From assembly GCF_020536995.1 (NCBI RefSeq), contig NC_068355.1, forward strand, positions 63,216,738 to 63,280,737: DNA of 64,000 nt. Reading direction: 5' to 3'. Origin of the DNA: Dreissena polymorpha. Taxonomy: Eukaryota. The translations under genes and the position numbers were made by a program. How positions within the stretch are numbered: position 1 is the first letter of the stretch; each line of letters opens with the position of its first letter. The notes below the pieces were generated by a model. It saw only the letters and a program-made list of their open reading frames with translations. It had not been told where the DNA came from and ran no database searches. This document shows, piece after piece, positions 34,078 to 57,733 of the stretch.

Positions 34078-34454
34078 CTATGAATAGTTAAAATGTGTGT
34101 TGCATTAAATGTTTTGTTTAAATTAAATACTATTCCAACAAAAGTGAAGTCTACTGTATATTAATAATACAAATAAGAATTATATTGTAAAAAAAGGTCT
34201 ATAAATTCACTTGTGATAATAGAAAATATATATTTTCAATTGTGGCTTCGCCACTCGTAAAAATAATAATTTCTATGATCAATCGTGAAATAAAATCGAT
34301 ATTCTACCTTAACCAACACATATCCTCCATGTTTGTATTATTTTTACTAAAGAAAAATTCCATTTAAATATTTTATAAACAGTACCAGTTTTTATATAAA
34401 TAAAAAATTATCAATTCAGATTTGTGTACAAATATATTAAAGTAGGAAAATCAC

Positions 34455-35323
34455 CTTATATCCCTAGGATTTTCACCAGTACGGGTTTTTGTCTGACGCT
34501 CAGTGTCGAAGGTGATGAATTCTTCACCAGTTTCAAAATCGATTCCAAGGCTGACATCACCCCAGCATAGGGTGTGAATTTCCTTGCCGGTTCTCATCCC
34601 AAAATGGGTTGTACATATAAGCCACAGTGAGTGTAATAGAGCTCTTGGGCTTGATTCTCCCAGAGTTTTAGCTGCGTACATAGCTTCAATATGTTCATTT
34701 GTTAATGCCTGGGCTTGATGCGGTTTATTTCCATAACCTTCTTTTTTCAGAGCTTTTTGTTTACTTTTTAATACTTCCCTCACTTTGGCAAATTCAGGGT
34801 CATTTATCAAAGAGTGCTTGTAGTTCATGTGCCTTAAATGCCTGTCGATTGAGCTTAAAAATGCCCTCAAAGATGTGGGTTCATACTCTGATCCATCTTT
34901 TTTAGTCACACCCAACAAAAACTCGCAGACCAGAGGGTTCAATTCATGAGGAGGTATATTTTCAATATTTCTTGCCTCATTTTTGTGACTTTTTAGGAAA
35001 GTTTTGAAAAGTCTGATGTCATTGTCGGTTTTCTTTTTTGTATTTAAATTTTCGTTTTCAAGCAGAAAGCTATCCACACTTACAGATCTGAAATTCCTTG
35101 TTGGTGTTGATGTTGGGTTTTGTTCTTTTTCTTCCTGTGTTGATGCTGTTACCAGTGGATGTGGGGCTGATGTTGCTGCTCCTGCTGTTGGTGCTGCTGA
35201 TGTTATTTCTTGTGATTTTGAAGCGCTGTCATCATCTTGTTCATTCATTTCATTAAAAAAGTCATCAAAGTCAAAGATATTTGAGAAAAGAAGATTTATT
35301 TCATTGTTTTCCAATTCATCCAT
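34455..35323 (-). CDS. Crypton-like tyrosine recombinase, exon 1: N-terminal acidic region plus SAM-like/N-terminal recombinase domain (MDELENNEINLLF...LRAFLSSIDRHLR...TGENPRDI)
   Basis: ATG at 35321-23. 289 codons to the donor AG|GTGATT at 34455/34454. Predicted total protein ~521 aa across 3 exons. Confidence 0.65.
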
Positions 35324-37864: not shown

Positions 37865-38439
37865 CGTACTGCTAGAAGCCCGCAGAAGAGAGATGGAGAA
37901 TGCCTACCGCAGTCAGCTTTTTATATCGACGCGCGACGAAAATTGCGGACCGCGCGTGCTCTTTCAATCGTCAATATTCATTACGGACCATCATAGATAT
38001 TGAGTGTGGCAATAACTGTGGGAAATTTAAAAGTGACACCGTATTATGAAATAAAGAATAGTGTTTTTTGCTTGCGTGAAGAATTATTTTCCTCTTCAAA
38101 GTTTTGATATCAAAATGACGGGTAATATTTTCACCGTGAAGTGAAGTTTAAAACCACTGTGTGTTAAAAGAAGTGCACTTCACCATCCGTCATATACTCA
38201 CTAACGACCATTCAAATAACAATGCGTTTGCTACGATAGCAATCTCATGACATTGCACAACGAGGGAAAAACACAAAAGGGAAGGCCCGCCAAGTAAATT
38301 CCAATTCATATCTGATACAGACGCCCTGCTCCGGGCCAGAAAGTCAACGAAAAGCCAGTTAAATGTTCTGCATGTGAACCAGTGCGCCATATTAAAGAGA
38401 CCTTTACACGTTATGGTTAATCGTCCAAACTAAAAATAT

Positions 38440-38600
38440 CCATTATATGCACCTTTTCACGATTTAGAAACGATTGACTAATTTGGAGAGTTCTGTTGTT
38501 GTCGTTATATTGTGAGACACTACGAGCATTGCTTATATAAAGTACAAAATATAACAATTTCAGTATGGGCACGGATGGCCGAGTGGTCTAGGCGATATAC
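38440..38600 (+). mobile_element. 5' portion of a tRNA-derived SINE-like repeat (box-A-like TGGCCGAGTGGTctAGGCG), truncated by the insertion at 38601
   Basis: 38465-38600 aligns with 48672-48805 (intact copy). No cloverleaf can be folded, so it is not a tRNA gene. Confidence 0.4.
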
Positions 38601-38744
38601 TTTTGTAACGTGTCTACCGTTCCTTCGGGATATATATATAATGGCTTTTCCTCGGGCTTTCCTTAGCCGTGTGATTTGATAAACAAAAAATATAATTTGC
38701 CTCTATACAAGTCTGTTCCGTATGCCCTGTGCGACTTGGATTGC

Positions 38745-38935
38745 TTTGATCACTTGGATTGACTTGGGTCGACTTGGGTCGACTCGGGTTGACTTGGGTT
38801 GACTTGGATCAACTTGGGTTGACTTGGGTTAACTTGGGTTGGCTTGGGTCGACTTGGGTCGACTTGGGTTGGCTTGAGTCGACTTGGGTCGACTTGGGTT
38901 GACTTGGGTCGACTTGGATCACCTAGGGTGTCTTG
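38745..38935. repeat. 10-bp microsatellite (GACTTGGGTY)n, ~19 copies, inside repeat A. Duplicated at 45355-45520 in A'.
   Basis: Direct reading. The minus-strand translation gives the periodic peptide DPSRPKPTQV (ORFs 38750..38950 and 45217..45531), which is a repeat artefact. Confidence 0.85.
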
Positions 38936-39584
38936 GGTAACTTGGGTCACCCCGGGTGTCTTACACCTATTGCAACGAGTCTGCAGTGTCTCCCCTCTGC
39001 GTTACGCAAGGGAGACAATCAATGTCCCCTCTCTGCGTTTATGCAAGGAAGACAAACGGTCAGTGTCTCCCCTCTGCGTTACGCAAGGGAGACAATCAAT
39101 GTCCCCCCTCTGCGTTTATGCAAGGAAGACAATCGGTCTGTGTTGTACAAGCGACAATCAGTAGCTTGACAGACTCAGGCTGACCTACGAGACCTGACAC
39201 GTGCACTAACTGGAATGGAAACCTTTGACCAGGACTTATATACGAGTCTCTAGGCTACCCAGCAAGCTATGGTATGTTGTGCGCCAAGTTGCCAGGGTCA
39301 CCTCCACTCGAAAGTATCCAAAGTCACAGAGATGTCCCTTGCTCAGGCTGACCTAAGAGACCAGAAACGTGCACTGTCTTATACTACCAAAGAAAACCTG
39401 TGACCCGGAGAAAGGTATGAGTCTGTATTGAAGCTACCCAGCAAGCTATGGTGTAGTGCGCAAAGTTGCTTGGGTCACTTCTACTCAAAAGGCATCCAAA
39501 GTCCAAGATAATTTCAATGGTATAAGGTCTCTAATTAATGCAACGTATTTAACGTTGTGAACTGTTCGACGATCGAACGCAGAC

Positions 39585-39810
39585 TGCTCCCTCCCCGTGT
39601 GTGTATTTCAGAGTTTATTTACAGGTCCTACTGGCCTCTTCACGAGGTTATAGTAGCCCGACCTGCCCCTGTGACCTTTCAGGGGAGAAAGATTAATTTA
39701 GAGCCAAAGTAGGTCAAATTTACCCCGGCTTCCCGGGTATTCGCCAAAGAAATAATTTAGATCCAAATAGACCAGTGCACGGTGGCCAATGAGACCTTAA
39801 TGTGCACTGG
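39585..39810. repeat. Repeat C (tgctccctccccgtgtgtgtatttcagagtttatttacaggtcctactggcctcttcacgagg...ggccaatgagaccttaatgtgc). Second copy at 40343-40570 and a partial copy at 46975-47095.
   Basis: The copies are ~90% identical. Both begin with the 12-mer tgctccctcccc, which also precedes B and B'. Confidence 0.6.
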
Positions 39811-41459
39811 TAGTTAGACAATCTCAAAAGACAAATTCATGTCTGAACGCAGCACCGCTGCAGCACACAGCTCCGCCTTTATGGCCCACTTTTTGTCATC
39901 AGCCGTCGTCTTCATCCCCGAGGCGGTTTCCCCAGCGCGTTGAGCGCACTAGGTACCGCCGCCACGGGGTCCCTCTTTAAAGCCACCCCCTCGATGTTCT
40001 TGGGTTCCCTCCTCGCAAGCGCAAGACCCAGGTCCGTCCCGTATGTCCCCCACACTGGTGGTCTTGCTGTCCCGCCGTCCCCGGCCCTCTTCAGACGGGA
40101 CCTCTGGCAGGTCTGGGCCGGCGAACTCTCGACGATAAACAGCGGGTGACAAGTCCGCTGCATCTTGGAGAAGACAGCAATCCCAGCAGTGTAGAAGACG
40201 TCCGGCTCGAGGGTGACGGACTCTGCTGGATTAGCAGAGCCACCCGCAGAAGTTCCCCTCTATAAGGAAATATGTACAGGTGAGAAAATCTTCTGCGGGC
40301 GACTCTCGCCTCGGTCGCGACGCGCACGCTCCAGCAGCTGACCGAGTGATGCTCCCTCCCCGTGTGTGTTTCAGAGTTTATTTACAGGTCCTACTGGCCT
40401 CTTCACGAGGTTACGGTAGCCCGACCTGCCCCTGTGACCTCTCAGGAGAAAAAGATTAATTTTAGAGTCAAAGTAGGTCAAATTTACCCCGGTTTCCCGG
40501 GTATTCGCCAAATACTTTAATTTTTAAAAGAGTTTGTTGCACGTTGGCCAATGAGACCTTAATGTGCTAGCTACCTAAAGGTGGTGATGAGGAGCGGATC
40601 CCGCCGAGTGTCCCGCACATTACTAATGTACCAGACACTCAACGCGATCCACATCCCAACACCACCCGGTACATAGGACCCGGAACACAACCACGTATCG
40701 CTCTCACACCCCCACTCATTACGGGTGGCGCGTATGAGAGCGCCACGCCCGTGCGTTCCGGGTTCCTTGGTGGTGATCTGTGTATGGTTGTGTATAGTGT
40801 GTGGTATGTGATTGTTGTGCATTTGTCTGGAGCGGAAGAGGAGGTGTCTGTCAGTAATTTACGGTCGTCGGTCAGTCGTGAAGGGTTGTATATTGTTGCA
40901 GTTCACAGATCGCAGAACCCGCCGCCCCCACACAAGCGCACCCACGCCGAGCGAGCCCGAGCCCCCCCTCGCGCCCGCATACTGCCCCGGCCCGAGCACC
41001 CAACCGCTGAAGACCCCCGAGACAAGCACCCTCATCCACCCACTTGCTGCGCGCGACAACAAATCAGTCGAGAACCAACCATGGAGCCATCCAAAGCCCT
41101 ATCCAGAGTCACCATCGTTCCTTCACACCCGCCTGCCAAACATCCAGACCATGTATCAAGCTGGGATGTATTAATTTTGCTGTTATGTTGTATTTGCTTT
41201 TATAATTGGATAGGTAAAGTAAATAAATGATCTAAAAACTCTGTTGATATATCATATGATTTATTTATGTTTGATGTTAATTTGTAAAACTCATGGTATT
41301 TTAGATTATGTCCTGTGCTCTAGCTATCATTTACCCAAGTGTGGTTGTTGTGCTCTCCGCCCCATGAGAGGTGTTAGTGGGGGTTCGAGTAGGATACAGG
41401 AAACGCCCCGATTCCAGAGGCGCCCCTGGTTCTTTTAAGTGCCCGGTGTATAGCACCGA

Positions 41460-42545
41460 TACACTGCACCCCCGTTTAACGTCCCTCGCGGAGGACATAT
41501 TAGTACATAGTGTTAGTATTGGTGTTTATATACATGTGTAGTTCTGCTGTTTTGTGCCATAGCTTGCGGTAACGTGGGCTCTCTCTGTTGTTATATGGTA
41601 TGTAGTTTGGATGTTATTGCGTAGGGCAGGCTAGTTTTTGAAAGATCATGTATACGATGATAGAAGAAGGGGACTATGTTTCTTTGATTGGGCCGAGATG
41701 ACTAGTTCGTTGGGGGCAGACAATCTTTTTGTAAATTCTTTCTTATTGATGTGTTAAGTGTCTTGTGAGACTGTGGTGTTGTAAGGGCCAGACTAGTTTT
41801 GATAGGTCATTTATTTGATGAAAGAAGAGAGGGGCTGAGTTTGAGTAAATTTGGTATTAGGGAGAGCGCACACGTTAGTGTTTCTGGTTATACAAGCAAA
41901 GACAGCATTCCTATGTGTTTGTGTAATATGCCAGGTTTAGTATTGTGGTCTGGTCTAGGGCATGTCGAGCTAAGGGCTCGAGCCGGCTACATAGGAGCAT
42001 ATAAAGGTTAGTGTACCAATGAACTGCAAACAGTAATTCTTTTCAGTATTTTTCAAGAGGGACGGCATGTAGCGTCTCTCGCTGAGGACATATTAGTATA
42101 TAGTGTTAGTAATGGTACATATAGAGATCTGCTGCCTTGTGTCATATGTTATAGTAGCTTGGGCACTCTCTGTTGCTTTTTGGGGTAATGGTTGTATGTT
42201 GATTTGAGGGTCAGACTAGATTTTTGCCAGATCATGTATTAGATGATAGAAGAGAGGGACTGATTGTGTGTAAATGGACCAAGATGACTATTTTGTTTTG
42301 TGGGCTTTGACAATTTCGAGATTTTCTTTCTTCTTTCTGAGGTGATTGCCTGTGGCACTGAGGTGTTGTGAGGGCCAGACTTTGTTTTTGATAGATCATT
42401 TATTTGATGATAGAAGAGATGGGCTGTGGTTATGGTAGTTTGGTATTAAGAGAGTGAGCGCTTTACTGGTTCGGGTTATGTATGATATCAAAGGCAGCAG
42501 TTCTATGTGCTATTGTGGCTATTTCAATGGTTAGTAAATAAATGG
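41460..42545. repeat. Two tandem copies of a ~590-bp repeat, each with an internal sub-repeat (gggccagact.gtttttgatag.tcatttatttgatga.agaagag)
   Basis: 41460-42050 aligns with 42060-42545. Confidence 0.6.
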
Positions 42546-44596
42546 ACTGCAATGAGTTAGTCTATCTATACACTGAGAAACAAATATACTAATTATCATC
42601 ACTTTTCTTTTTTTTGGTAATCTTGGGTGGGTCGTGTCGACAGAGCCGCAGTGCGAGGAGGGGGCACCTCACCACCCCAGCCGACACGCTCCATCCAACA
42701 TTTTTTGTTTTTTAATATAATGCATATATAAAATGGTTGTGATATCTACATTTAAAGGGGTTGTACTGAAGGTTTCTCTATTGAGTTACCTGAGTGCGCA
42801 CTTGATGCGGCTTCCGTCTCTGTGCGGAAGTGTAGTGTCTGCGTGCTTACCCCACTACCGTCGTCGTCGGCTGCTGCGTGCTGGGTGCAGCGACAAAAAT
42901 TTAAAATACCGAGGACCAGCACAGGGGGGGGGGGAGGGTCTCGCGGAACCCGGATACTGTTAGCCCGATTTTTTGGTTTACAAAGGGGGGGATTTTATAT
43001 TTGTCCATATCTTTACATAGTGGTTACAGATGTTCGTTTTTATTTTTATCAAGCGCACCTATCCGTCATTGATTCTAGTAGCGTGCCCTTAGCGTTAAGT
43101 TGCGTTTATGTTGTACGGTCGCGGTTGTTAACGAGACAGGCGGCCGATATATTACATGATTTGGTTGACAGTTATATTCGGTACCGTAATCCCTTCCGTC
43201 GTTTTAGTAAGAGAGTGTTGTTGATGTTTTACTGGGTATCTTGTCAGCCCTTGCCCGTCCGTGGCGTCGTCACAGGGCACATACCAGGGGGCCCCACTGA
43301 CACACAGGAGTGACCCGTTGGCTATGCCCTGCGACGAATAACTATAGGTCGGTTGTCATATCCGCGTTATGCTCAGGCCGTGATAGTACCGTAGGTTCAC
43401 TCTGTGCTGGCCCGGGCGAGCAGCCCCAGTGACATACGGAAGTGACCGTCGTCCGTGCCCGCACAGAGGGTTCCCTTATGGCTATAGTCCACGGGCGGGG
43501 TCCGGCAGACAGGGTAGATGTTATGTAGTTACCTAAATGTGTGTTTAGTCCGGCACCAGAACGCGCTTTATTCGCACTTTTGTAAGTTACGCGATTTGTT
43601 TATACGCATATTTTTGTTATTACGGCTAAGCCTAAGGAAGATAGTTTATGCAAGAAGACTCTGGATAGTTAGTATGCCCTACTGTATCGCTTTATTTTAT
43701 AGATTAAGTGCAGGTATGTATCTAGTTTTACCCTTAATTTTGATTTTAATGCGATTTTCCTTATATCTTGCTTATGCAAGGGAGATAATAGAAATACTCA
43801 AAGTTCGTAAAAATAGTCCTTTCCGTGCATATTTATGTTTGTTTTGCAATATATATGGGAATTAAACCTTAAGTTACTATTAGTATGGGGATGGAGAGAT
43901 ATTGTTACGGATATATGATGTCTGTATAATACATTGGGGTAAATCACTGCTCCCTCCCAATAAGAGCAGCGCTTTATATACTGATATATATACCACGTGA
44001 CCCGCTTGCTTAAGACATCACCCTACTATTTCATGTAAACACAACCCTACCGTTTCAAACAGTAATTGTATAATACTGTGGCTATATTATGAAATACATA
44101 TTGTGCATCTTAATAATCGACTTGTATTATTAAATCATCAAATTATGTACATGAAAATACAATGATCAATATTAAATGCACATACTATGCGCGTGGAACT
44201 TACCGAAAAGTGAACGATTTGCGACCGGGAAACGTACTTTCGTTTTGATGTAAACAATATGAATGTACTCAAAGAATAATGAACCTAAAGGATAAAATAC
44301 CGGCCAAAATCGTCACACTACCCACGCCTCCGATTTAAGCGTCCCGCTTACAATACTCTGTCTAAGTGTTAAACAAATACGTCAACGACATCTTTTATTG
44401 ACGAACAAAATACTACTCCCGGTAGTCATGTTAAAAGCAAATGTTATGACAAAACATGATATCTAATGCTAAATGAATGACCAGTATCCTGATGGGATGA
44501 GAAAAACAAACATGAGTGTGACCTGATGAAACAATGAACAAGAAACAGTAACAATAAACTATACAGCTAACTCTAACACTTCTAAATGTGTCTCAG

Positions 44597-45142
44597 TCAT
44601 TTGGCAGTATGCCCCATGGTTATGTGGATATAGAAACCCATCGCGTCATGGCATGTTTCACCGCAGACATTACATTTCATAGGATTGTCGACACAATGGC
44701 AACCCTTGTGTACGAACATCATGGCCTGGTTGCCGAAGGTGATATCGCACACATCGCATTTGTTTACCCTAGGTTCGTCTGTCTGGGTCTGTACGATACA
44801 GCCAAACACCGTGGGGACCTGTCTTCTCATCGACCTATGGCCTGGAGCGGCAGTTTCAAGTGGGCGATCACAGCTGACCTCGTTTCCCATCCAGGAGCTG
44901 CATGCCTGCTCCACGGCCAGATGCGGCTTCTTAGGAGCCATGACTGGTTCTGGCGCCGTCCGTTTCCTGATTATTCTTCCTACGTTAAACTCTATGCAAG
45001 GTTCTTCCTCTACACCAACTTCGGGGTCGCTTTCAATACCAGTGATCTCGGATTCAAGTTTTAGTCTAGCATTTTCTAGCTTGACATGCTCAAGTTCGGC
45101 TCTTATCCTATCCAAGTCGCTTTGTTCTTGATGTGAAGCCAT
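44597..45142 (-). CDS. C2H2 zinc-finger ORF (181 aa from ATG): N-terminal coiled-coil (DLDRIRAELEHVKLENARLKLESE) and two C2H2 fingers (CDVCDITFGNQAMMFVHKGCH; CNVCGETCHDAMGFYIHITMGH)
   Basis: An uninterrupted ORF between B and A' of the composite element. The track start at 45202 is a TTG. The first ATG (MASHQEQ) is at 45140-42. Confidence 0.45.
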   Translation of the reverse strand: MASHQEQSDLDRIRAELEHVKLENARLKLESEITGIESDPEVGVEEEPCIEFNVGRIIRKRTAPEPVMAPKKPHLAVEQACSSWMGNEVSCDRPLETAAPGHRSMRRQVPTVFGCIVQTQTDEPRVNKCDVCDITFGNQAMMFVHKGCHCVDNPMKCNVCGETCHDAMGFYIHITMGHTAK

Positions 45143-46488
45143 CGTGAGGCTGAGTCGGGATGCTTTAAAGGTCGTCCCAATATATCCCACCGCTGCCACC
45201 AATTTTTGTAACGTGTCTACCGTTCCTTCGGGATATATATATATATATAATGGCTTTTCCTCGGGCTTTCCTTAGCCGTGTGATTTGATAAACAAATAAT
45301 ATAATTTGCCTCTATACAAGTCGGTTCCGTATGCCCTGTGCGACTTGGATTGCTTTGATCACTTGGGTTGACTTGGGTCGACTCGGGTTGACTTGGGTTG
45401 ACTTGGATCAACTTGGGTTGACTTGGGTTAACTTGGGTTGGCTTGGGTCGACTTGGGTCGACTTTGGTTGGCTTGAGTCGACTTGGGTCGACTTGGGTTG
45501 ACTTGGATCGACTTGGGTCGACTTGGATCACCTAGGGTGTCTTGGGTGACTTGGGTCACCCCGGGTGTCTTACACCTATTGCAACGAGTCTGCAGTGTCT
45601 CCCCTCTGCGTTACGCAAGGGAGACAATCAATGTCCCCCGTCTGCGTTTATGCAAGGAAGACAATCGGTCTGTGTTGTACAAGCAACAATCAGTAGCTTG
45701 ACAGACTCAGGCTGACCTACGAGACCTGACACGTGCACTAACTGGAATGGAAACCTTTGACCCGGACTTATATACGAGTCTCTAGGCTACCGATCAAGCT
45801 ATGGTATGTTGTGCGCAAAGTTGCCAGGGTCACCTCCACTCGAAAGTATCCAAAGTCACAGAGATGTCCCTTGCTCAGGCTGACCTAAGAGACCAGAAAC
45901 GTGCACTGTCTTATATTACCAAAGAAAACCTGTGACCCGGACAAAGGTATGAGTCTCTATTGAAGCTACCCAGCAAGCTATGGTGTAGTGCGCAAAGTTG
46001 CTTGGGTCACTTCTACTCAAAAGGCATCCAAAGTCCCAGATAATTTCAATGGTATAAGGTCTCTAATTAATGCAACGTATTTAACGTTGTGAACTGTTCG
46101 ACGATCGAACGCAGAATGCTCCCTCCCCATAAGAGCAGCGCTTTATATACTGATATATATACCACATGACCCGCTTGCTAAAGACATCACCCTACTATTT
46201 CATGTAAACACAACCCTACCGTTTCAAACAGTAATTGTATAATACTGTGGCTATATTATGAAATACATATTGTGCATCTTAATAACCGACTTGTATTATT
46301 AAATCATCAAATTATGTACATGAAAATACAATGATCAATCTTAAATGCACATACTATGTGCGTGGAACTTACCGAAAAGTGAACGATTTGCCAACGGGAA
46401 ACGTACTTTCGTTTTGATGTAAACAATATGAATGTACTCAAAGAATAATGAACCTAAAGGATAAAATACCGGCCAAAATCGTCACACT

Positions 46489-46560
46489 TTTACTCCAGGG
46501 GTCAGTGGTTCTTAAATTGTATTATTGTTTTTCGGCGTTACTGTTTACGTCAGCTTTTCA
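46489..46560 (+). mobile_element. 3' portion of the split SINE-like repeat (tttactccaggggtcagtggttc..)
   Basis: It matches 48817-48860 of the intact copy, which carries a box-B-like GGTTCGAGCCC. Confidence 0.35.
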
Positions 46561-48669
46561 CCTTACCTGACCTTTGTAACTGTAAAATAAAATTCAAATA
46601 AAATTTCCTGCGGCTAGGTCAGAATGAATACACTTCATTTATTCCATAGGCTGATTTGAGCAAACGACCAGAACATTGGAAACATGTCCGCGTCTTTGTA
46701 ACACTGTTTTACTGCGTGTTCAGCATGAAACAATTTTATCTCTAATGAAAAGGCTTAATAGATAGAACAGATTTACACTCAATCTCGACATCAATACAGT
46801 TTGTGCGTGCACCTTTTATTTTCAGAGGATTGCCAGCGCGAGAACGTTTGTACTTAAAGGCTATGTTCTCATATTTAGTACAAACTTCCATATTCCTGTC
46901 AACATGACAACATGTAAAAGTATAAAGAGCAGTGGAAGCGAGGCCTCACTTTAATGCATTGCATTTCAACCCGCGAGGTATCGGGTCAATTCGCGGCCAG
47001 TGTGTGTGAATGTCAGAGTTTATATACAGGTCATCGCTGCGTCTTCACGACTACCTTATGTGCTGACCGGAGTTCGCGGCCAGTAAAATAATTGTTATAA
47101 AGTAAAGACGCTAAAGCGTGAACTAGGTGAACTGGAATTTTCTTTAGACCAGAAAGATGTTAAAAATGAAGATATCCAGCGATATAATTATGGTATGTCA
47201 ATAATTGATTCTTAATGTGTTTTCAACAATACCGTGATAAATATTATTTTTAATTAATTTAACAAGAATAAGTCCACCATATTGACTAATGTATTAAGCA
47301 TGAGCGCGATGATTCTCGATACTGTTAATAATCGAACCAAATAGCAATGTCAGACACACCACTAAAACAGTTTTGTTCGAAGAACGCGCGTATAAATATT
47401 AAAAATATGTACGGATACTTCGCGTGTGGCCGGTTGACTCGTATGCTTTAATTTCACTTCCATTCTTCTTTTTGTTTTCTTTTTTGTATCTATAGTAGGT
47501 TTATGACCAGCAATATGTAATAATGTAAAATAAGCCGCGAAAACTCCGCGTAACATCCCGTACTGCGTGTGATGCAGCTAAGAACTGCACAGAAAAAGAC
47601 ATTCGCTATCCTTGATCTCATTCATTGAACTTTTTACCTTTCAAAAACTCCAACCACAATCAACGCCGTATATCTTTTAAAAAGATATTTCTTGTTACTA
47701 GATCTTTTTATATCCAATGTTTACATCAATCAATATAACGCATTTAATGAAAAACTTCTATACATGCCAAATTCTGTGAAAAAGTCCCTTTAATGAACCT
47801 GCAAAGTAATAACCTTTCGTGGATCCATACACATGTTGTAGAAGATGAATAGCACTAACTATATCATTGCCCATTAAAGCGTCACTTATGAAAATTTGTC
47901 AGATGATGAAAAATTACTTGCGACGTTTAAAAATGATAATGACGTATATGTTGCTGCCAAAACCTGCTTTAAGATTTTATATAAACGCAAACAATTTTTA
48001 TACTCTAGGACATAACCATATTTTTACTGTATATATGTATATACAGAGTCTTAGTTAGAATATCTTTTTGTATGTTTTAATGGTAAAAATGTTTTTAATT
48101 AGAATGAAAACTTGGCTTTTATAAATGTTTTAGTCATGTTAAATGTAAAGTGTTTTTTTTAAATGCACAGTCTCTAAAAAGGCATTTATGACTGGTTACA
48201 TTCATGTCATTGTGATATATTTTATATGTAAATTGTAGTATGAACATGCAATGTGATTGAGACTTAAATAAAATATCTGAATTGAATTGAATTGCTATAT
48301 AAGTCGTTCTGATCGTCCACTGCTGAAGCCGAGTACTAGAGTAAAAATTGCTTTTTGAAAACAGTTTTGTTTTTCAAATTACATCACATGGGCACCAAAG
48401 TTTTTATGTTTTCCTTGAGTGATATGGGGACAGTCAAGGCCCTTTGTTTTCGTGCGTGTGTTCGAATTCGAATTGATTGTGCATTAAATGGGCATTTTCA
48501 CGATTTGGTAAATTTACAAACTTTAAACAAATTGTTTCAGATTCGCAAATTTTCGTTTCAGTTATGATATTTGTGAGGAAACAATAGTACTTAACATTTA
48601 CCATGCTCTAAAATATCAATTATGTGCATCGTTTGACTATTTAAGAACCTCAAAATTATAAAGCGTTTC

Positions 48670-48990
48670 ATCGCGAAACGATTAAATGATTTTGAGAGTT
48701 CTTTTGTTGTCGTTATATTCTGGGATTATACTACGAGGATTGCTTATATAAACTTTAAAATACATCAGTTATGTTATGAGCATGGTTGGCCGAGCGGTAT
48801 ACGTGAAAGACATTTTACTCCAGGGGTGAGCGGTTCGAGCCCTGTGAGGGTTATTTTTCTTTCTTTAATGTTATTCTTATTTTTTACTGGAGCTTTTTAG
48901 ATCTAATGTTTACATTTATCAATAAAAAGCATTTAATGACAAACTTCAATACATGCTAAAATCTGTGAAAAGGACCCTTTAAGTGTTTGT
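48670..48990 (+). mobile_element. Intact copy of the tRNA-derived SINE-like repeat (box A TGGCCGAGCGGT, box B GGTTCGAGCCC, AT-rich tail)
   Basis: Homologous to 38465-38600 plus 46489-46560. Its tail region is also found at 47690-47800. It lacks an acceptor-stem or anticodon-arm fold, so it is not a tRNA gene. Confidence 0.45.
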
Positions 48991-49150: not shown

Positions 49151-50515
49151 ATTATGTAATGCAGCGTTCTTGCCGAGTGTGTAGATCTATGAGCGTTAAG
49201 ATACGATATTGGATTTTAATAAAAATGACTAACGACCATGAACGTTTCAAACTGCTTATTTATTTGTTAATTTCTGTTTCTCTTGTGTTCAAAAATTATT
49301 ATATATTTATATATAATATTACATGTATATACAGGCACCCACTGTCTAACATGATTCTGTGTTCTATTAACACTGATCCTTTTGAACAGATACAGATTGT
49401 TTCCAATATAGCGATATTAAAATCTTCAATATATTTGACTGATCAAAGACATATTAATTCACACAAGTGCATTAATACAATACATGCGGCTTACGCTTAA
49501 AAAGTTACTTTTTATGTGAGACTGTTAGTAAAACTGTAGTATTGAGTATCAAAATTAACCATTTAAAAGTAATAGCATTCAAAACCACGTACTTTTTTTT
49601 CAAAACCACGTACTCGAAAGAATTTTAAGTTAGATTTCTGTTAAAAAGTGACGTGGAGATGGTTCCAATAAGAAAAACTGAGCGAGACTGACTTGGAGCA
49701 AAAAAAAATGGCTCCTTATATACTCTGTAATGGGATCGACCAAAAATCTGGGGCGAAAAGTGGTCGAAAAATGGTCGAAAGGTGGTCATTGACCAACTAT
49801 TGGCCAATGACCATAAAACATGGGCAAAAAGTGGTCGGTGACGAAATAACTGGTCAATGACGTCACTACGACTTAACTACATTCGAACGTCATCTTAACA
49901 ACTGACTGAGTAAAACAGATAAATGGCAGCCACCTTGGACTTAAAATAAGAATTAAACAGGAGCGCAGTTAAATTATGACATTTACAATAGCGGTGCATA
50001 ATACTATGACATGATGCCGCCGTTTTCTATTCATGGCTGATAACCTTGACTTGAAATAATTCAACCGTTACGAACACAGGAAGTAAGATGGCTGACGGCT
50101 GACAAAAATGTGATTTCAATCAAAGGAGTTTTACGATTGCAAAAGGAATAATGGCATCTAATGCAAAAAGGAGCAAACAAATTTACAGACTAAGTAGGAA
50201 TTGATTACATGCAATGGATATTACCAATCACAAACGTGAGTAAGAAGTTGAAAAAATGCTTTAAGGATCAGTGTAATGAAATTTCGCGAGTCGTAAAGTT
50301 ACTTGCAATGAAAAGTCGGAACAAAACCAAGCCCAGGATGAAATACATATTAAGTATAACATTGTGCTTATAAAATAATAAAATTTGATAAGCATAGTTT
50401 ATACAAAATCAACGCTGGACATGACTACTCGCGGTGGGTGCCTGTTCTAAACAACAACAAGCTAAGGTCACATAAAAATCATATCAATTTAACAATCATG
50501 GGGTTCTTCATTACC
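49151..50515 (-). repeat. 3' LTR of gypsy copy 1 (~1.36 kb). The boundary next to ORF-A is approximate.
   Basis: Homologous to 57734-59085. On the minus strand it contains TATATAAGGAG (plus 49714-49724), CCAAT, TGACGTCA palindromes and repeated TGGTCGAAA motifs (plus 49740-49870). The putative PPT GAGCGAGGGGG is at plus ~50530-50545. Confidence 0.4.
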
Positions 50516-50684
50516 CCCTCGCTCGTTATTGACTCTCCTGAGTCAATAATAAAAAAAAGGAAACTACAAGAACAATCAAGTTAAATGTCTCTTTCTCCAT
50601 TGTCAGTTTGTAACTTTTAACTTAAAACTGTTAAGATTATAATTTAATAATTGAAAAAAAAGTTCATGTACTGAGTCTTTAAAG

Positions 50685-51356
50685 TCATTTTCTAATGTTT
50701 TTAGCAACACTTTTCACGGATAAACGGTTCTCTCTTCGCCGCAACCTGTCCATGTCGTCTCTCACCTGGAGCACGGCCGTGGTTACCCGTTGCAGTAAGT
50801 CGTTCTGACGCTCCATCAACCGCGTATGTCTGCTCATTTCTTTCGCAATCCTTTCTACACCTGCCGCCATATCCGAGGTTAGTTTCTGGATGTTCCCCAG
50901 GATTAGGGACGTTGGCACTGCTGTCTCAACATGCTCCTCTGGAGCTTTCGGAAGGGATCTAGTGGAAGATGCTGATTGCCTGACCTTCTTGGCTGAAGTA
51001 GGCTGAACCTCAGGATCTACCCATTTAGCCGTAGTAGAGCCACTACACATCTTTTGCGCCAGCAACTCCAGAGGCTGTTCAACAAGGAAATCCAAACGTG
51101 AGGTATCATCCAGCTGCAGGATGATCTCATCCTGGATGGGCGTTCCTGGTGTCGCTAATGACCTGATCAACTTGGCACCCGCAGTGGAATTTGGAGTCTT
51201 CACAGGCTCGAACAGCTGGGCCTGACGTGCTGCCTTCGGTGTAGGCCTATAGACTGAGACTTCACTAGAGATTTGGTTCTGAATGAACCAGCCATTCGAG
51301 ATGTCTTGAAACGGACGCGGCAGATGGTTGGGCTCATAGAATTGATTCCTGAACAT
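50685..51356 (-). CDS. Retroelement extra ORF-A (223 aa): unknown function with a C-terminal coiled-coil (..ERIAKEMSRHTRLMERQNDLLQRVTTAVLQVRDDMDRLRRRENR..)
   Basis: It lies between integrase and the 3' LTR on the same strand as pol. A second, decayed copy is at 59244-59870. Confidence 0.45.
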   Translation of the reverse strand: MFRNQFYEPNHLPRPFQDISNGWFIQNQISSEVSVYRPTPKAARQAQLFEPVKTPNSTAGAKLIRSLATPGTPIQDEIILQLDDTSRLDFLVEQPLELLAQKMCSGSTTAKWVDPEVQPTSAKKVRQSASSTRSLPKAPEEHVETAVPTSLILGNIQKLTSDMAAGVERIAKEMSRHTRLMERQNDLLQRVTTAVLQVRDDMDRLRRRENRLSVKSVAKNIRK

Positions 51357-51518
51357 GTTCAGACCCGTTGGCGCGGCAGTGACTGGTGACTGATTTGAGG
51401 CGCTTGAGTAGGTGTGGGCCTTTCTGGTAGTAGAGGAGTTTCTTCCGGGACATCAAACCACCCTTCTTCTCCTTCTTTCGCATGTGGCTCTGATACAGGG
51501 TCTCCCAAACGTTCAATG

Positions 51519-51824
51519 TCAAACTGAGACACTGAACGGATTATCTGACTTATACAGGTAGCGGCGTAAATCAGTCACGCCCCTCAGCTTCGCCTCCTTA
51601 ACATGAGGCGCATACTTGGTCACATGATCAAGAAGGTGTTGCTGTGTTTGACACCGGAAGCTGCACAGGCTGCATGAGAATGGTACTTGGTCAAAAGAAA
51701 CATGGTACTTAAAAAAATGGCCCGCAAGTCGCCCCTTTCTGTCAATCTTCTGACACTTCTTACACCGGTACTGCACCCTGCTTGGCTTCTTCGCTGTCTC
51801 CATATCCTGCAAATATAGCATCAT
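51519..51824 (-). CDS. Retroelement extra ORF-B (101 aa): C2H2-like zinc-finger motifs (YRCKKCQKIDRKGRLAGHFFKYH; FSCSLCSFRCQTQQHLLDHVTKYAPH)
   Basis: It sits ~380 bp downstream of the integrase end on the same strand. A second copy is at 60999-61256. Track ORF 51334..51522 bridges B to A in another frame, which suggests one ancestral ~390-aa ORF broken by a frameshift. Confidence 0.45.
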   Translation of the reverse strand: MMLYLQDMETAKKPSRVQYRCKKCQKIDRKGRLAGHFFKYHVSFDQVPFSCSLCSFRCQTQQHLLDHVTKYAPHVKEAKLRGVTDLRRYLYKSDNPFSVSV

Positions 51825-52203
51825 GGATTGAAGGGCGAGTTATCGGTCTAGTCGAGGAAACCAATCTGTCTTTGATCAATAACACTTTGTTTTGACCCCC
51901 TTAATTATGCTGACTTTATAGTATCTTTATCACAAAGTTAGACCTCTTGTGGATGACTGTTATACCATTAACATTCAAGTTACTTATTTATATGTTTATT
52001 TTTAAGTCTTGCGAACTCGTCAAGTATCTGTGATATTATACAATTCTTTGTTTTGTGAGTTTATGTATATATTTATATTTATCAATAGCGTTCTATGTTA
52101 ATGTGTTAACGTTTAATGTTAAATAATTTTATGCGGACAATCTATGTTACAAAAATTCAACATATTCATCAAGTGTTTACAATAATTGCTTTTAAGCCCT
52201 ATT

Positions 52204-55200
52204 TTATTTCACTCCGAGCTTATTTTTTAGCTTTCTTCGCACTGTGCACAACCATGACGGAACACATTTTCCAACGTAGGGCTTCAACTTATCATGGTGT
52301 ACCGTTTTCTTTTGCCCATTTGCATCCATTTGAATTGTCAAATTTATTGTTGATGGCATGTTTATAATAACATATGGTCCATCATAATGAGGTTCCAGCT
52401 TGAATGTAACACCAACTTTTCTGGTTTCCCGTAAGAGCCATACAATGTAATCAACATTGTATTTATTAAATGCCACTCTTAAGTCATAGGTTTCCTTATT
52501 TCGTTCAGCTTTCTTCCCTAGAACAATACGAGCGAGCTCATGGGCTCGACTTGTTTGCTGCCTCAACCTCAATGCGTGTCCCGCTGCAGAATCCCCGTCT
52601 TCTGCGGTTCTAGGAAGGCCGTAAATGACATCAAGAGGCAGACGGACTTCTTGTCCAGTTGCAAGCATGTTTGGCGAAGACCAGTGCTCTCATGCGGAGT
52701 TGCTCGATATGCTCCTGCGATACTTCCTAGATGCAAATCCCATTCGCTCTGTTCAACCGATAAATATGCGCGAATCATTTTGAGAAGAGAACGATTGAAT
52801 TGCTCAACTTGGCCATTGCCTTTTGGGTTGCGCGGGCTGATGCGAGTCTTCTTGATCCCGAAGATAGAACACATTTTCTGTAATAACTGACTCTCAAATG
52901 CTGAACCCTGATCTGAATTGATGGACAGATGCGTACCCCAGCGCGAAATAAAATTATCCACTATCTTATCCACACTCTCCTCAGCTGTCTGTGTCTTTAC
53001 CGGAAACACCTCTACGTACTTGGTAAAGTGATCAGACATAACCAAGATGTGACTGTTACCACAGCAGTCACAGGAAAAGGGCCAACAAAATCCACTGCCA
53101 ACACATCCCAAGGAGCACCTGCCTTTAGTCGTCCCAACGGCGCCTTGGTTTCTTGACAGGGGCCTTGTCCCTCTCACATACATCACACGCTTGGATGTAC
53201 AGCCGGATATCTGTTTTTAGGTTAGACCAATAGAAGGATCTCACCACGACAGCTCGGGTTCTTTTAATACCCTGATGACCAGCTGTAACAGCATTATGAG
53301 AATGCCTTATAATCGATTCTCTAATTTTCTTTGGAGTCACAAGCTGCAAATTGTCCTAGGAGGTTAATGAATCGCATCTTCCCCTGCGATACAACACACC
53401 TTCTTTTACCAGCAACTGATCCCAAATTATCAAATAATGTTTGGATTCGGGACATTCGTCAAGCATTTCACTATTGTCGGGTTTCTTGGCAGCGTTTACT
53501 GCTCTGGCAATCGTCCCGATATCACTGTCTTCATCCTGCATTGCAGCCATCTCTTGACAGGTGTACTGACTGCACCATGGATTTGATCTGAGCACTGCCC
53601 GTTAAGCAGTTGGAACTATGTTTTCAGAAACCACTGCAGTTGGCTCAGTTTCCAGATATACATCTTGTGGGCCTGGAAGACTTGCCATCATAGATGCTAC
53701 CCTCTTTTAGTGGCTTACTCGTGTCGACCAACGGGCATTCACAGTCTCGCGGTTTGCATCTGGATAAAGCGTCACAGTGTGGCTGTTTAAGACCTGGACG
53801 GTATTCAATCGCGAAGTCGAACGCCGCTAAAATGTCGGTCCATCTTGCGATTTTGTCTCTGGGTTCATGCTGAAGAGCCATACTAAGGCTTGATGATCGG
53901 TTCTGACGGTGAACCTTCTACCCAGCAGGTATTGTCGAAAGTACTGCACGAAATACACAACCGCTAGTAGCTCCTTTTCGGTAATGCAGTAATTCTTCTC
54001 TGACCTGCTAAGCGCTCGGCTCGAATAGGATATCACGCGCTCACGATTTTCTTGGTACTGAGCCAGTACAGCTCCAATGCCCACACCTGATGCATCTTCG
54101 TCGAGGTGGAACATGCCTTCGTTTACGGGATAACTTATTACTTCCGGGCTGATCAGGGCTCGTTTGAGTGCACTAAACGCCTTCTCTTGGGCTTCTATCC
54201 ACTAAAACTTTGCCTCCTTTTTGGTCAAATCTACCAGTGATCTTGTCAGTTTTGCAAAGTCCTTGATAAACCGACGATAATACGACCCTGAAGCCACGAA
54301 CTGCCTGACTTGTTTGGGGTTTTGAGGCGTCGGCCAGCCAGTGATTCTAGCTACAATGGGGGGGGGGCGGGTTAAATACCTTTATTTGACACCAAATGCC
54401 CAGAAATAATACTTCTGTTTGAAGCATGTGGCATTTGTCGGGTTTCAACTTCAATCCTGCCTCTTGGACCCGGGATAGGACTTCGTCTACACGCACAAGA
54501 TTCTGCTCAAAGGTAGAGCCATAAACAATGATATCGTCGATATAGACGAGGCATGTGTTCCACTGTAGATGTTGTAGAGCTATTTCCATGGTCCGCTGGA
54601 AGGTGCTGGCTGCATTATTTAGACCAAAGGGTATTCGAGTCATCTCATATTGGCCGTATTTACATACGAAGGAGATCTTTGAGATGTCTTCCTTCTTCAA
54701 AGGAATCTGAAAGTAGCCTGAAGTTAAATCAAAACTACTGAACAGATGTGTGCCCGCTATAGCATCAAGGCAGTCCTGAACGCGGGGCAGAGGAAAGCCA
54801 TCAGGTTTGACTAAAGCGTTAACTTTCCGGTAGTCCACACATGAACGGATGCTTCCATTTTTCTTTTTAACTAAGACAATTGGACTTGCCCAAGAGGAGA
54901 CACTCTTTTGAATCACACCCATTTTAAGGTCTTCAATTGCGCCTTTTTCTTCGTCTGCGTAAGCTAGCGGAACAAGACGTGGTCTTTGCTTAATGGGTGC
55001 TGCATCGCCTGTGTTTATCGAGTGCTCAGTTAAATTAGTTAAACCTAAATCCCAATCATTTGTCGAGAATGTCCTGGAACTTGATGAGTAACCCTGCGAC
55101 TGCTTCAACTTCGGCCTGCGTCTTGTCTTTGGTTGATCTCTTCAGTAGAGATATGAGGTGCGGCGGGACTTGACCAGGTTTCGCCGGTGTCGGAAGTTTG

Positions 55201-57500
55201 GAGTTTTCTTTAATTGTATTCGGCCGACGTGCCATGACTCTTCGTACCGATGAAAAATTGCCTTCCTCGTCCATGTATTCTTCTTATGATATCACGGACA
55301 CGACTCTTTCAATCTTTTCTGCCCTTCCGATCACTGCATTTTGTCTCAGCTGAACTTCAGTCATGAAAGGGTTAAGTACCTTGATCGTGCAGGCTGGCGA
55401 TTTGTTTAAATTGACTAAAGTTGACGTAACGGATACTTTTCTTTGAATTGCTGCGTTGGTTCAACTACATAGTCCGCCTCTTTGTCATCATCATCAGTCT
55501 CAAACCGCTCAACGAACACCTTTACCACAGCTTCAGCTTTAGCTGGCACCGTCATGTCACTCGCCACGACTACTTGCCTTGTCCTACCGACCTGGAAAAC
55601 TGGTATTTCGCTCCCATCTTACTAACACAATCTTGTTCTTGCTTAACAAGATGTCTGCTGGCCTACCCTGTTTCCGTCTGAGAAAATCATAACCTAGCAA
55701 GGCGTCGTCTTCTATTTCCGCTACTATTACCTCTTCAGTCATCGTCACTGGACCAAACTTCAACTTCAATCTCGCCTGACCTGCATCTCTAATGGGAGCA
55801 CCCGCGCTCCAATCAGACAGGCTGACTTTTAAATCATCGGTCGACTCTCGGGACGCAATTGTTCAAACACTCTTTTTGATACAATTGTCCTTGTCGCCCT
55901 AGTATCTGTGGTAAACGTTACGGGTATATCATTTTCCATCCCTCTGACATAAACCCCATCTGCCAGCTGCTTCGCTCTCTCTTATCTCACCACCTCGTTC
56001 CCTCCCAAGCGATCCACCGTTTTGCTGGGCTGGCCTCCTTCATCTTCTACTGGGACCTCCCTATGGCCGCAAGGGTTGGCCCATTCTCGTTTAAAGGATT
56101 CTCACTTCTCTTCAAGCTCTCGGGCACTGTTTCTTTAACATCTCTCTAAGTCTGGTCAATCAAGCATTCTCGAGCAAAATGGCCTTTTCCATGGCAGCGG
56201 TTACATTCCACTTCTCTTCTACTTCTTCTTTCCCCATTGCCACTTCTTGTTCTTCCTTCCAAGGTATCCAGCCGTTTTAATATTTGTTGTAAGACTCCGT
56301 CGTTGCTTTCTGTTGAGTCCGGCTGAGGCCTCTTATGCCACTTACTTGTCTTGTTGTATGATGTTTGCTTGTTTGGAGCTGACTGTGCTTCGCAGAAAGA
56401 CTCGTCTTTTTCAACCGCTCTCCTTGTTGCTCTTTTATGACCCCGCTCGCCCTCAAATCCCGCTCTGGTTTGCATTAGTGTCAATACGTTGTAGACCGCT
56501 TCATCAATCGTTGTAGGCTCTTTATGGTATTCTACCTCAAACCTAACTTCTTCATCTTGCAAGCCGTCAAGGAATCTGCAAACTAGGTATTCATGTTTGG
56601 TTCTTCTTTTGCGGTGAGGGTGCGCTCTATCGTATAGCATCTTGAGCTCCGCGGCATAAGACTCTGGTGTATCACCATGCCTTTGGTCACGCCGTGTGAA
56701 CTTGACCGCAAATGGTTTTGAAGATTGAACTACTCTAAATCTGCTATTTAGCTACGCTTTAAGATCCTGGTAAGTGTGGAGCGTTGCAGGTGAGAGCTGT
56801 GTGAAGGCGAATTCGGCTGCTTGACCTTCTAGTCTTTGTAGAAGTTGGTCAAGGCGCATATCATCACTCCAGCCAAACCGATCTGAGATCACATCAAAAC
56901 CAGTCACCCAAACTTTCCAATCTTCTTTACCGTCAGATGGTGGGATACGCATGCGCTCGTGTGGCCTAGATATGCGTGACTCATTGAGGCCATGCGACGA
57001 CAAGTGGCCACAATATCGGTCGTTACTAAAGATTTGATCTCCTGAAGGGTAATGGCGTCTCAATAAGTTGGGCATGTGTTGCATTGGGGCGCGATTTGTG
57101 TTTCGATTTTCTGCATAGTTAAATTGATGGATGCTTACAAAAGGTTGGCTTGATACGGGCCTACTAGGTTCACTACATCGTCCTCTGGGCTGACCGTATT
57201 CTGAAGGCAATATTCGTGTCTCAAGACTGTTGCAATCAGACTGTGTTATCCGTTCATCGGATGACTGCATGTACCCGGATTGCTGGGGCCTTTGCACACG
57301 GGAGCTACCTGCTTAACAGAGGAATGCTCTGTCTGGGATAGGCGCGCCTCGAGTTCCGCTTGACTTGACTTTATTCCTCTTACTTCGGACACCAGATCCC
57401 TGAGCGCTCCATAAATGACCTCGATGGCTTCGCGGGGATTGGTTGACCGCCCCGACGACCCTCCGTACGGTCACGCCCCTGAGCTAACCTGAGTCTCCAT
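52204..57500 (-). pseudogene. Degenerate gag-pol of gypsy copy 1 (frameshifted, with stops)
   Basis: The track ORFs are gag 56752..57297 and 56146..56640; PR 55584..55769; RT 54347..55108; RNase H 53827..54114 and 53645..53881; IN 53125..53349, 52569..53186 and 52204..52668. Confidence 0.8.
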
Positions 57501-57712
57501 GATGTTATGCTCAGTTGAATGATTGAAGTAAACAAGTGTCGTTGATATATTGTTACAGATTCAATGTTATTATTAGTAGTTATTTTTCACGGAGTGACCA
57601 CTATGTCAATGTTTTAATATCAAACGGAATGGGTTGGTAGCGTTTTTTAAAATATTATTTTCAAACTCGGAACGAATCATTGAATACTTAATTATTTAAT
57701 TTTTTTAAAGTT

Positions 57713-57730: not shown

Positions 57731-57733
57731 TAA

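Follow-up and report, generated by a model that had tools for sequence, protein, structure and literature searches.

Evidence that a composite repeat block in a Dreissena genome is an internally deleted Ty3/Gypsy retrotransposon with two probable retroposons nested in one long terminal repeat

TRIMs (terminal-repeat retrotransposons in miniature) are defined by a total length of less than 1 kb and terminal repeats of 100-250 bp; their bivalve example, biv-TRIM, was not detected in Dreissena polymorpha and is without a clear primer-binding site (PBS) (PMC6934838). Among the elements that lack long terminal repeats (LTRs), ribozymes have been described in R2 and SIDE, L1Tc/NARTc, and RTE, and the ribozymes of the hepatitis delta virus (HDV) type that stand at the 5' ends of R2, L1Tc, and other non-LTR elements free them from co-transcripts (PMC3774820, PMC3414825, PMC3185411). 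Here we describe a 7.9-kb block of nested repeats within a 64,000-nucleotide stretch of D. polymorpha DNA (contig NC_068355.1, positions 63,216,738 to 63,280,737 of the forward strand), which we call the window. The window is A+T-rich animal DNA with a G+C content of 33-40%, and that of the block is 42-57%. A first-pass annotation divided the block into the repeats A, C, C', B, A', and B', a GC-rich segment, a tandem pair of about 590 bp, and a zinc-finger open reading frame (ORF), and concluded that it fits no standard layout of a mobile element. The best overall explanation, to which we assign a probability of about 0.85, is an internally deleted Ty3/Gypsy element with two retroposons nested in one of its LTRs. 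No feature of the block requires a new class of element.

The block is almost certainly an LTR retrotransposon located on the minus strand. It occupies positions 38604-46486 and is bounded by duplicates of the tetranucleotide CTTT. When the block and one CTTT are taken out, the joined flanks form a continuous alignment, over the junction, with a copy of a repeat resembling a short interspersed nuclear element (SINE), located at about 48.67-48.84 kb. The continuous empty-site alignment and the CTTT duplication show that the block is one insertion with a 4-bp target-site duplication (TSD), which bears out the earlier proposal of a single insertion into a SINE-like repeat. Both LTRs, when read on the minus strand, have the termini TGTGACG...CGTTACA, a native length of about 1.28 kb, and 96-98% mutual identity. 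The order of their parts is U3, comprising repeat B with a TATA box, the 12-mer GGGGAGGGAGCA, and R-U5, comprising repeat A with internal minisatellites. The 12-mer is expected at about the transcription start of the LTR. The TATA-like box of the 3' LTR has its equivalent at 46141-46149 in the 5' LTR and is conserved in the related contigs L001, L002, and L124.

The PBS begins 5 nt past the 5' LTR, and all of its 18 nt are complementary to ATCCCACCGCTGCCACCA, which is the 3' fragment of tRNA-Leu(AAG/TAG) as reported for a mammalian and not a mussel tRNA (PMC10591036). The identical PBS is present in the contigs L001, L123, and L126. The polypurine tract (PPT) GGAGGCGTGGGTAG adjoins the LTR start and is purine-rich yet interrupted; it is conserved in L001 and L002, and the corresponding sequence of L126 is 88% identical over 41 nt. 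The termini, PBS, and PPT are the same in the window copy, L001, and L123, and the PPT also in L002. The TG...CA LTRs, 4-bp TSD, tRNA-Leu PBS, and PPT, all in place on the minus strand, contradict the view that no standard LTR layout fits the block. A transposon with terminal inverted repeats or a Helitron was considered and rejected, given the direct LTRs, the 4-bp TSD, and the absence of inverted repeats of at least 40 nt from positions 38000-47500, a search that did not include Helitron-specific ends. Without the nested inserts, the element is 3.5 kb long. The region between its LTRs measures only 889 bp and contains no gag or pol gene, only a 181-residue fusion of a Gag N-terminus and an integrase tail. 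The window copy is therefore non-autonomous. Since it has the tRNA-Leu PBS and the PPT and is without gag-pol, it would have been copied in trans by proteins of autonomous relatives.

The repeats reported in the first-pass annotation, including the nested A/B/C units, the pair of 590 bp, the microsatellite, the hairpin units, and the internal duplication, were all recovered by self-comparison of the block; nearly all of the described features exist, with coordinates 2-3 nt off. Repeats A (38601-39596) and A' (45204-46128) are 95.8% identical outside gaps and differ by an additional 77-bp unit in A and an unequal number of 10-bp repeats. B (43948-44319) and B' (46117-46488) are 97.8% identical, and C (39585-39805) and C' (40350-40567) 88-89%. 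The tandem pair of about 590 bp (41477-41917 and 42070-42509) is diverged, with an identity of 72%. Repeat A contains the 10-bp minisatellite (ACTTGGGTTG)n, 77-bp units with hairpins, and an internal duplication of about 170 bp. Matches of the 10-bp array of A and A' to the Rfam microRNA families MIR2863 and MIR5565 were far below threshold and reflect self-complementary minisatellite sequence, and Rfam matches to small nucleolar and long non-coding RNAs were at chance level.

Repeats A, B, A', and B' seemed to be separate units because one LTR is split by an insert of 4.36 kb. A and B are the two parts of a single LTR, with no sequence between them in the 5' LTR of the window or in three independent contigs. 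One of these, L001, contains an LTR end, the PBS, the ORF, the PPT, and B joined directly to A. In L124 and L002, the zinc-finger region is followed by the PPT and by B joined directly to A. The segment from C to the 590-bp repeats is present in none of the five short contigs (L001, L002, L123, L124, and L125), and it therefore arrived later in this one LTR. Repeats C and C', the GC-rich segment between them, and the 590-bp repeats, which had been counted as parts of the element, are later nested insertions, absent from the 5' LTR as well as from the other copies. The supposed CpG-rich core has a G+C content of 54-56%. Its ratio of observed to expected CpG is 0.85-1.04, against 1.15-1.26 in the flanks, so it is rich in G+C only, and a CpG island is rejected.

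The parentage of the element was determined from relatives that share its PBS, LTR ends, and zinc-finger tail. These relatives contain the domains of Ty3/Gypsy elements, which are missing from the window copy itself. The ENA contig L126 (10171 bp) holds a full-length relative with the same tRNA-Leu PBS, the same LTR end, and LTRs that are 99.8% identical to each other. Its domains are ordered Asp_protease, RVT_1, RT_RNaseH, Integrase_H2C2/rve, and Integrase_p58_C. The near-identity of its LTRs marks the L126 element as young. Contig L002 encodes an integrase C-terminus (Integrase_p58_C, 30.8 bits; cut-off 27), with the zinc-finger region, then the PPT, and finally the same LTR behind it. Contig L123 contains the LTR, the PBS, and a 304-residue Gag (P0013), joined to the region upstream of the PPT; the match of P0013 to Retrotrans_gag (E 9e-5) is just below the cut-off. 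Positions 1-1753 of L123 represent another deletion derivative, in which the sequence preceding the PPT is 80% identical to positions 44361-44592 of the window. This deletion differs from that of the window copy, and the family therefore yields several kinds of internal deletion. The window element is a non-autonomous, internally deleted Ty3/Gypsy element of a Dreissena (zebra or quagga mussel) genome.

In the autonomous relatives, the integrase ends in zinc fingers. The 412 residues of the protein P0025 (L126, ORF 7450-8688) belong to a single ORF, which extends from the integrase C-terminus across four fingers and covers 99% of a query composed of the integrase tail and the fingers. The integrase also continues into the fingers in one frame in P0024. 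The tails of P0025, P0024, P0026, and P0027 contain about four fingers, one of the CPLCK...H..C type and three of the C2H2 type, together with an acidic DWDSDP motif. In L002, a run of seven T at positions 455-470 parts the integrase and zinc-finger frames, and one T fewer would join them. The break may stem from mutation or from faulty assembly, and a programmed frameshift at the run, though conceivable, has no support. A separate accessory ORF for the zinc fingers was rejected, since P0024 and P0025 read through from the integrase and L002 is off by one T. The autonomous relatives form a bivalve Ty3/Gypsy lineage whose integrase terminates in a zinc-finger module, a candidate integration-targeting or dimerisation domain. 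No description of such an integrase tail was found in the literature by a limited query, which is weak evidence of novelty.

The 181-residue ORF, annotated earlier as a coiled coil with two C2H2 fingers, is confirmed on the minus strand. The fingers are at its C-terminus, and their match to the Pfam family zf-C2H2 (21.7 bits) is below the cut-off of 25.2. A search of solved structures returned generic C2H2 matches only, and a specific Ikaros-type dimerisation domain is not claimed, even though the names in public annotation and the C-terminus of Ikaros would suggest one. The ORF is indeed the only coding capacity of the block, as the ten longest open frames in the middle segment have no Pfam matches and its main ORFs no protein relatives. 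Alignments of protein and DNA identify residues 1 to about 37 as the N-terminus of Gag and the remainder as the C-terminal part of the zinc-finger sequence that follows the integrase; the ORF matches the last 110 residues of P0025 with E 8e-19. The ORF is therefore an in-frame deletion product that joins the Gag N-terminus to the C-terminal end of Pol. In L125, a longer version of the chimeric ORF occurs behind the same LTR end. The join of this long form (L125, P0006-P0008, and P0017) lies inside a 9-nt microhomology, ACACCCAAA, which is present both in gag (L123) and in the zinc-finger region (L002 and L124). The ORF is the relic of a deletion between two copies of ACACCCAAA, which brought Gag codon ~50 next to the terminal zinc-finger tail of the integrase and removed nearly all of gag-pol. 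The window copy has a further in-frame deletion (ITGIE/SDPEV, the slash marking the junction), which is shared by the D. polymorpha protein KAH3776965 (94% identity). This second, small deletion made the 181-residue form, which then propagated. The same junction in KAH3776965 indicates that the window subtype itself was copied. Four in-frame junction variants are known, a sample biased to intact frames by having been found through protein similarity.

Relatives of the ORF with 93-95% identity, none of them identical, were found in D. polymorpha and among contigs of freshwater metagenomes. Copies of the ORF account for at least 15 annotated D. polymorpha proteins, encoded on at least eight chromosome-sized contigs. 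The gene models are named Pegasus-like, hunchback-like, ehn-3-like, or hypothetical, and they include P0004, P0014, P0018, P0019, P0021, and P0023. They are likely annotation artefacts, and the Pegasus-like, hunchback-like, and ehn-3-like models of D. polymorpha should not be treated as host transcription factors. Comparison of the window ORF with that of L001 revealed ten non-synonymous and two synonymous differences; the resulting dN/dS of about 1.3, based on 12 substitutions, provides no evidence that selection maintains the ORF.

The insert in the 3' LTR is organised around the 12-mer. The sequence TGCTCCCTCCCC occurs four times in the window (from positions 39585, 40350, and 46117 and, with one mismatch, from 43948) and nowhere else in the 64 kb; 0.08 occurrences are expected by chance, and none of 100 shuffles reached four matches. 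The U3/R junction with the 12-mer is conserved, with variation, in L001, L002, and L124, and the 12-mer is therefore native LTR sequence. It had been interpreted as a hotspot of recombination or cleavage or as a conserved terminus. The role as a cleavage site agrees with our analysis, and that as a terminus of B or C does not, because the 12-mer belongs to the LTR and was duplicated as a TSD. The three 12-mers of the 3' LTR bracket two units, of which I2 adjoins U3 and I1 adjoins R. Read on the minus strand, the two units have nothing in common except the final ~209 nt (C and C', 89% identical), a tail that carries AATAAA and ends in (CA)n. A third tail of this type, truncated at its 5' end, lies outside the block, about 500 bp beyond its right end, and is enclosed by two copies of the 11-bp sequence TTCGCGGCCAG (46990-47000 and 47073-47083). 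The TSDs of the C-tailed units are accordingly 12 bp, twice, and 11 bp long. Variable TSDs, 5' truncation, a defined 3' tail, and the lack of LTRs and terminal inverted repeats, as seen in these three tails, all from the window, characterise non-LTR retroposons. None of the ten longest open frames in the middle segment has a Pfam match. Within the U3-proximal part of I2, positions 43640-43800 contain short motifs similar to the hairpin units of LTR part A, for example GCTTATGCAAGGGAGATAAT compared with GCGTTTATGCAAGGAAGACAAT; BLAST does not score the similarity as significant, and it may be due to chance.

At the 5' end of I1, starting 3 nt after the 12-mer, the minus strand can be folded into an HDV-like ribozyme. 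The Rfam model CPEB3_ribozyme matched positions 40357-40224 with 23.8 bits (E 0.0044 in 4.6 kb). This model ignores the P2 pseudoknot, which was found by hand and with a custom descriptor. The candidate consists of P1 CUCGGUC/GACCGAG (7 bp), P2 CUGCUGGA/UCCAGCAG (8 bp), P3 GCG/CGC (3 bp), L3 UGCGCGU, a 17-bp P4, J1/4 GC(G), and J4/2 CUAA. It has the nested double pseudoknot of P1, P1.1, P2, P3, and P4 that marks the HDV-like architecture and retains the conserved U and G of L3 and the C of J4/2 (PMC3774820). No other G+C-rich sequence in the window fits the descriptor. In 400 shuffles of the segment, six loci passed the loose descriptor and none the strict form, and the z-score of the pseudoknot-free fold is -3.8. 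No ribozyme was found in I2. Taken jointly, it is probable that the 4.36-kb middle segment comprises two non-coding retroposons sharing a 3' tail and that I1 bears an HDV-like ribozyme at its 5' end, the latter judged from the predicted fold. Such a ribozyme would trim I1 from a read-through transcript. If the candidate cleaves, it adds a mollusc example to the non-LTR elements processed by ribozymes.

A shared 3' tail, 5' truncation, and duplications of 11-12 bp that vary from site to site are the signature of target-primed reverse transcription by non-LTR machinery, and a mechanism for the origin of the middle segment can be proposed. The nested units resemble SINE-like or 5'-transduced retroposons of a long interspersed nuclear element (LINE). 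Two such promoterless, non-coding retroposons would have entered the 3' LTR by target-primed reverse transcription after integration of the LTR element. The same nick in the bottom strand, 5'-CCCC/ATAAGAG (the slash marking the nick), may have been used twice, with the second nick fixed about 12 nt away. The nick site would survive the first insertion, leaving three 12-mers that bracket two inserts. Reuse of the nick predicts an insertion of I1 followed by one of I2 on the U3 side, in agreement with the order seen. The divergence between C and C' is 11%, compared with 2-4% between the host LTRs, which rules out that C' is a local duplicate of C. Therefore, I1 and I2 arrived separately, or together from another LTR copy.

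We speculate, with little confidence, that the 12 bp lying between the TATA box and R in LTRs of this family are a preferred landing site for promoterless, ribozyme-bearing retroposons. If so, the retroposons would gain transcription by RNA polymerase II from their position shortly downstream of the LTR promoter, and their 5' HDV-like ribozyme would cut them from the co-transcript. The arrangement would be the LTR-promoter equivalent of R2 in rDNA, one parasite targeting the promoter of another, and a first indication of its specificity would be the pair of insertions that share a 12-bp duplication.

The block could also be read as a single entity. The proposal that the whole 7.9 kb is one new composite mobile element, with the 12-mer as its conserved terminus or recombination site, draws on the entry of the block into the SINE-like repeat in one piece and on the strong over-representation of the 12-mer. 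It is highly improbable, because A directly joins B, with no 4.36-kb segment, in three other copies and in the window's 5' LTR, because the full set of LTR-retrotransposon hallmarks is present, and because a C-type tail occurs elsewhere in the window with another flanking duplication. The first-pass annotation had itself named the contrary outcome, an accretion of unrelated insertions around a fragment of a host gene. Its first half holds, since an LTR element and unrelated retroposons were brought together; its second half does not, since the ORF is derived from the element. That the ORF is a host gene or a fragment of one, with the surrounding repeats incidental, is the explanation to which we give the least credence, even though NCBI models of 93-95% identical D. 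polymorpha proteins carry the names "zinc finger protein Pegasus-like", "hunchback-like", and "ehn-3-like", and the two C-terminal fingers are generic C2H2 fingers. The ORF lies between the PBS and the PPT, within the LTRs; its N-terminus is the start of a retrotransposon Gag and its C-terminus the end of the integrase ORF in relatives; and it is dispersed over at least eight chromosome-sized contigs and shows no purifying selection.

The internally deleted element with two nested retroposons has to be weighed against other origins of its middle segment as well. Growth in place, or recombination at the 12-mers by unequal exchange, tandem duplication of one insert, or ectopic gene conversion from an LTR copy in which the composite was already present, would explain why three identical or nearly identical 12-mers bracket two units that begin alike. 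Identical TSDs from two independent events are unusual, and LTR copies are numerous enough to serve as conversion donors. We nevertheless consider such an origin unlikely. The divergence of C from C' exceeds that of the host LTRs, which excludes a local duplication after insertion, the two units share nothing beyond the 3' tail, and gene conversion shifts the problem to another LTR copy, in which two insertions at the same site are still needed. Alternatively, C and C' might be U3 promoter modules of related LTR families, assembled into a patchwork by template switching, because on the minus strand each C closes with a TATA-like AAATAAA, about 30 nt ahead of where the 12-mer ends, and so mimics the spacing between the TATA box and the 12-mer in B. 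Both LTRs are copied from one template, however, and an insert in one LTR must post-date integration. In addition, the third C-type tail, a fragment of 72 bp, lacks the 12-mer and is flanked by an 11-bp TSD of its own, and the 5' end of I1, a few nucleotides downstream of one 12-mer, has a ribozyme-like fold. Promoter modules are accordingly a very unlikely source of C and C'.

Several observations weigh against the reading of two retroposons, one of them with a ribozyme, nested in an LTR element. The ribozyme score of 23.8 bits is below the gathering score of 35, the match was not reported at E <= 0.1 over the whole 64 kb, and the first P1 pair of the candidate is C-G and not the usual G-U. 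A protein search with the concatenated main ORFs of the middle segment returned no relatives. No second copy of I1 or I2 was found by this search or by a metagenome scan with a 20-nt pattern from the C tail, which gave no match, and their mobility is suggested by three tails and their TSDs in one window. No partner LINE was found in that scan either. A scan with an 18-nt pattern from the start of R gave only chance bacterial matches, none of which was related to the window by BLAST. Two insertions with an identical 12-bp TSD need a reused nick or the transfer of an already assembled composite. I2, which is heterogeneous, may in turn be a compound. For the LTR element, AATAAA and ATTAAA are absent from the sense strand of the LTR (45207-46486, minus strand), and thus the R/U5 boundary and the polyadenylation signal are not placed.

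Table 1. Features of the block and its surroundings, in window coordinates (a full stop denotes features without strand).
Feature	Position	Strand	Remarks
Left 4-bp TSD (CTTT) of LTR element	38600..38603	.	Inside SINE-like repeat; empty-site alignment
3' LTR	38604..44317	-	A (R-U5 side, 38604-39596), 4.36-kb insert, and B (U3 side, 43948-44317)
12-mer TGCTCCCTCCCC, copy c	39585..39596	.	TSD adjoining R side of LTR
I1, 753-bp non-coding retroposon (probable)	39597..40349	-	5'-TCA, ribozyme candidate, G+C-rich body, 209-bp 3' tail C (39597-39805)
HDV-like self-cleaving ribozyme candidate	40223..40346	-	Predicted cut 5' of C40346; putative catalytic C at 40234
12-mer, copy b	40350..40361	.	Between I2 and I1
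I2, 3.59-kb non-coding sequence	40362..43947	-	3' tail C' (40362-40567), 2 x ~590-bp tandem repeat (41477-42516)
12-mer, copy a (TGCTCCCTCCCA)	43948..43959	.	Adjoins U3 side of LTR
TATA-like box TATATAAAG (minus strand), 3' LTR U3	43972..43980	-	12 nt upstream of 12-mer
PPT region AAATCGGAGGCGTGGGTAG (minus strand)	44318..44336	-	Directly upstream of 3' LTR
181-residue ORF, including stop codon	44597..45142	-	Gag N-terminal coiled coil (residues 1 to ~37) and zinc-finger tail of Pol/integrase
PBS TGGTGGCAGCGGTGGGAT	45184..45201	-	18/18 complement of tRNA-Leu(AAG/TAG) 3' end
Intact 5' LTR (A' and B', 1280 bp)	45207..46486	-	Single native 12-mer at 46117-46128
Right 4-bp TSD (CTTT) of LTR element	46487..46490	.	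Inside SINE-like repeat; empty-site alignment
Third C-type 3' tail, 5'-truncated, 72 bp	47001..47072	-	Outside block; 11-bp direct repeat TTCGCGGCCAG

The similarity between the SINE-like copies at 38467-38604 and 48675-48815 does not stop at the tRNA-like head (GGCCGAGTGG...) and continues for about 100 nt upstream of it, so that the repeat is either a longer unit than a simple tRNA-derived SINE or one with a conserved 5' leader. The head is only tRNA-like, since no tRNA gene was called by ARAGORN in the window.

The remainder of the window contains further repeats and scattered coding sequence. An unrelated Ty3/Gypsy element occupies positions 49159-64000 on the minus strand, with its reverse transcriptase at 54347-55108 and integrase at 52204-53186. 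The 3' 3.8 kb of this element (49159-52922) recur at 57737-62353 with 93-95% identity, interrupted by an extra ~870 bp at 59868-60735, which suggests two adjacent copies or a tandem arrangement, the second running towards the window end. A large minisatellite array of 36/57-bp units (up to 35 copies) at 5792-7399 gives rise to spurious long ORFs of up to 544 residues on both strands. Tandem arrays at 26-486 (174-bp period, 2.7 copies) and 8606-9253 (165-bp period, 3.9 copies) are typical of satellite-like repeats in bivalve genomes. Upstream of the block, the ORF at 19664-20257 (plus strand) matches DEAD/ResIII helicases with E 9e-17, that at 24437-25045 (minus strand) has a weak zf-AD match, and that at 34451-35323 (minus strand) matches DUF3504 and QRICH1 just below the cut-off. 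These three ORFs are possibly host exons or remnants of other mobile elements.

The window element resembles the derivatives of Ty3/Gypsy elements known as TRIMs and large retrotransposon derivatives (LARDs) in having two LTRs, a PBS, a PPT, and a short TSD, in lacking gag-pol, and in occurring in multiple copies. As for these derivatives, its mobilisation in trans was presumably the work of an autonomous relative, such as that of L126, whose LTR ends and PBS are the same. With LTRs of 1280 bp and a length of 3.5 kb without the nested inserts, it exceeds the size limits of a TRIM (PMC6934838). It differs from a typical LARD in that its interior is short and keeps an intact chimeric ORF. Some Ty3/Gypsy integrases carry a C-terminal accessory module, such as the chromodomain of chromoviruses. 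Like these integrases, P0025, P0024, P0026, and P0027 run past the GPF/SH3-like region into an extra C-terminal domain; unlike them, they have no chromodomain, and the extra module consists of about four zinc fingers, one C2HC-like and three C2H2.

The nested units are comparable to the ribozyme-bearing non-LTR elements R2/SIDE, L1Tc/NARTc, and RTE. I1 is promoterless and has a ribozyme-shaped fold at its very 5' end, and the C-type tails show a 3' end common to different elements, variable TSDs of 11-12 bp, and 5' truncation. In contrast to those elements, no ORF for a reverse transcriptase or endonuclease and no partner LINE were found for I1 and I2, and the ribozyme candidate of I1 starts with a C-G pair. 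The target of I1 and I2 also differs from that of R2, being the promoter region of an LTR and not rDNA, and their 3' end is (CA)n after AATAAA. As in other nested insertions of transposable elements into LTRs, a younger element in one LTR of an older one has made the LTRs unequal in length; here, however, two insertions occupy exactly one site and the 12-bp target is triplicated. The main value of the analysis is the correction that it provides, in that a seemingly unclassifiable structure resolves into standard parts when it is read on the other strand and against other copies.

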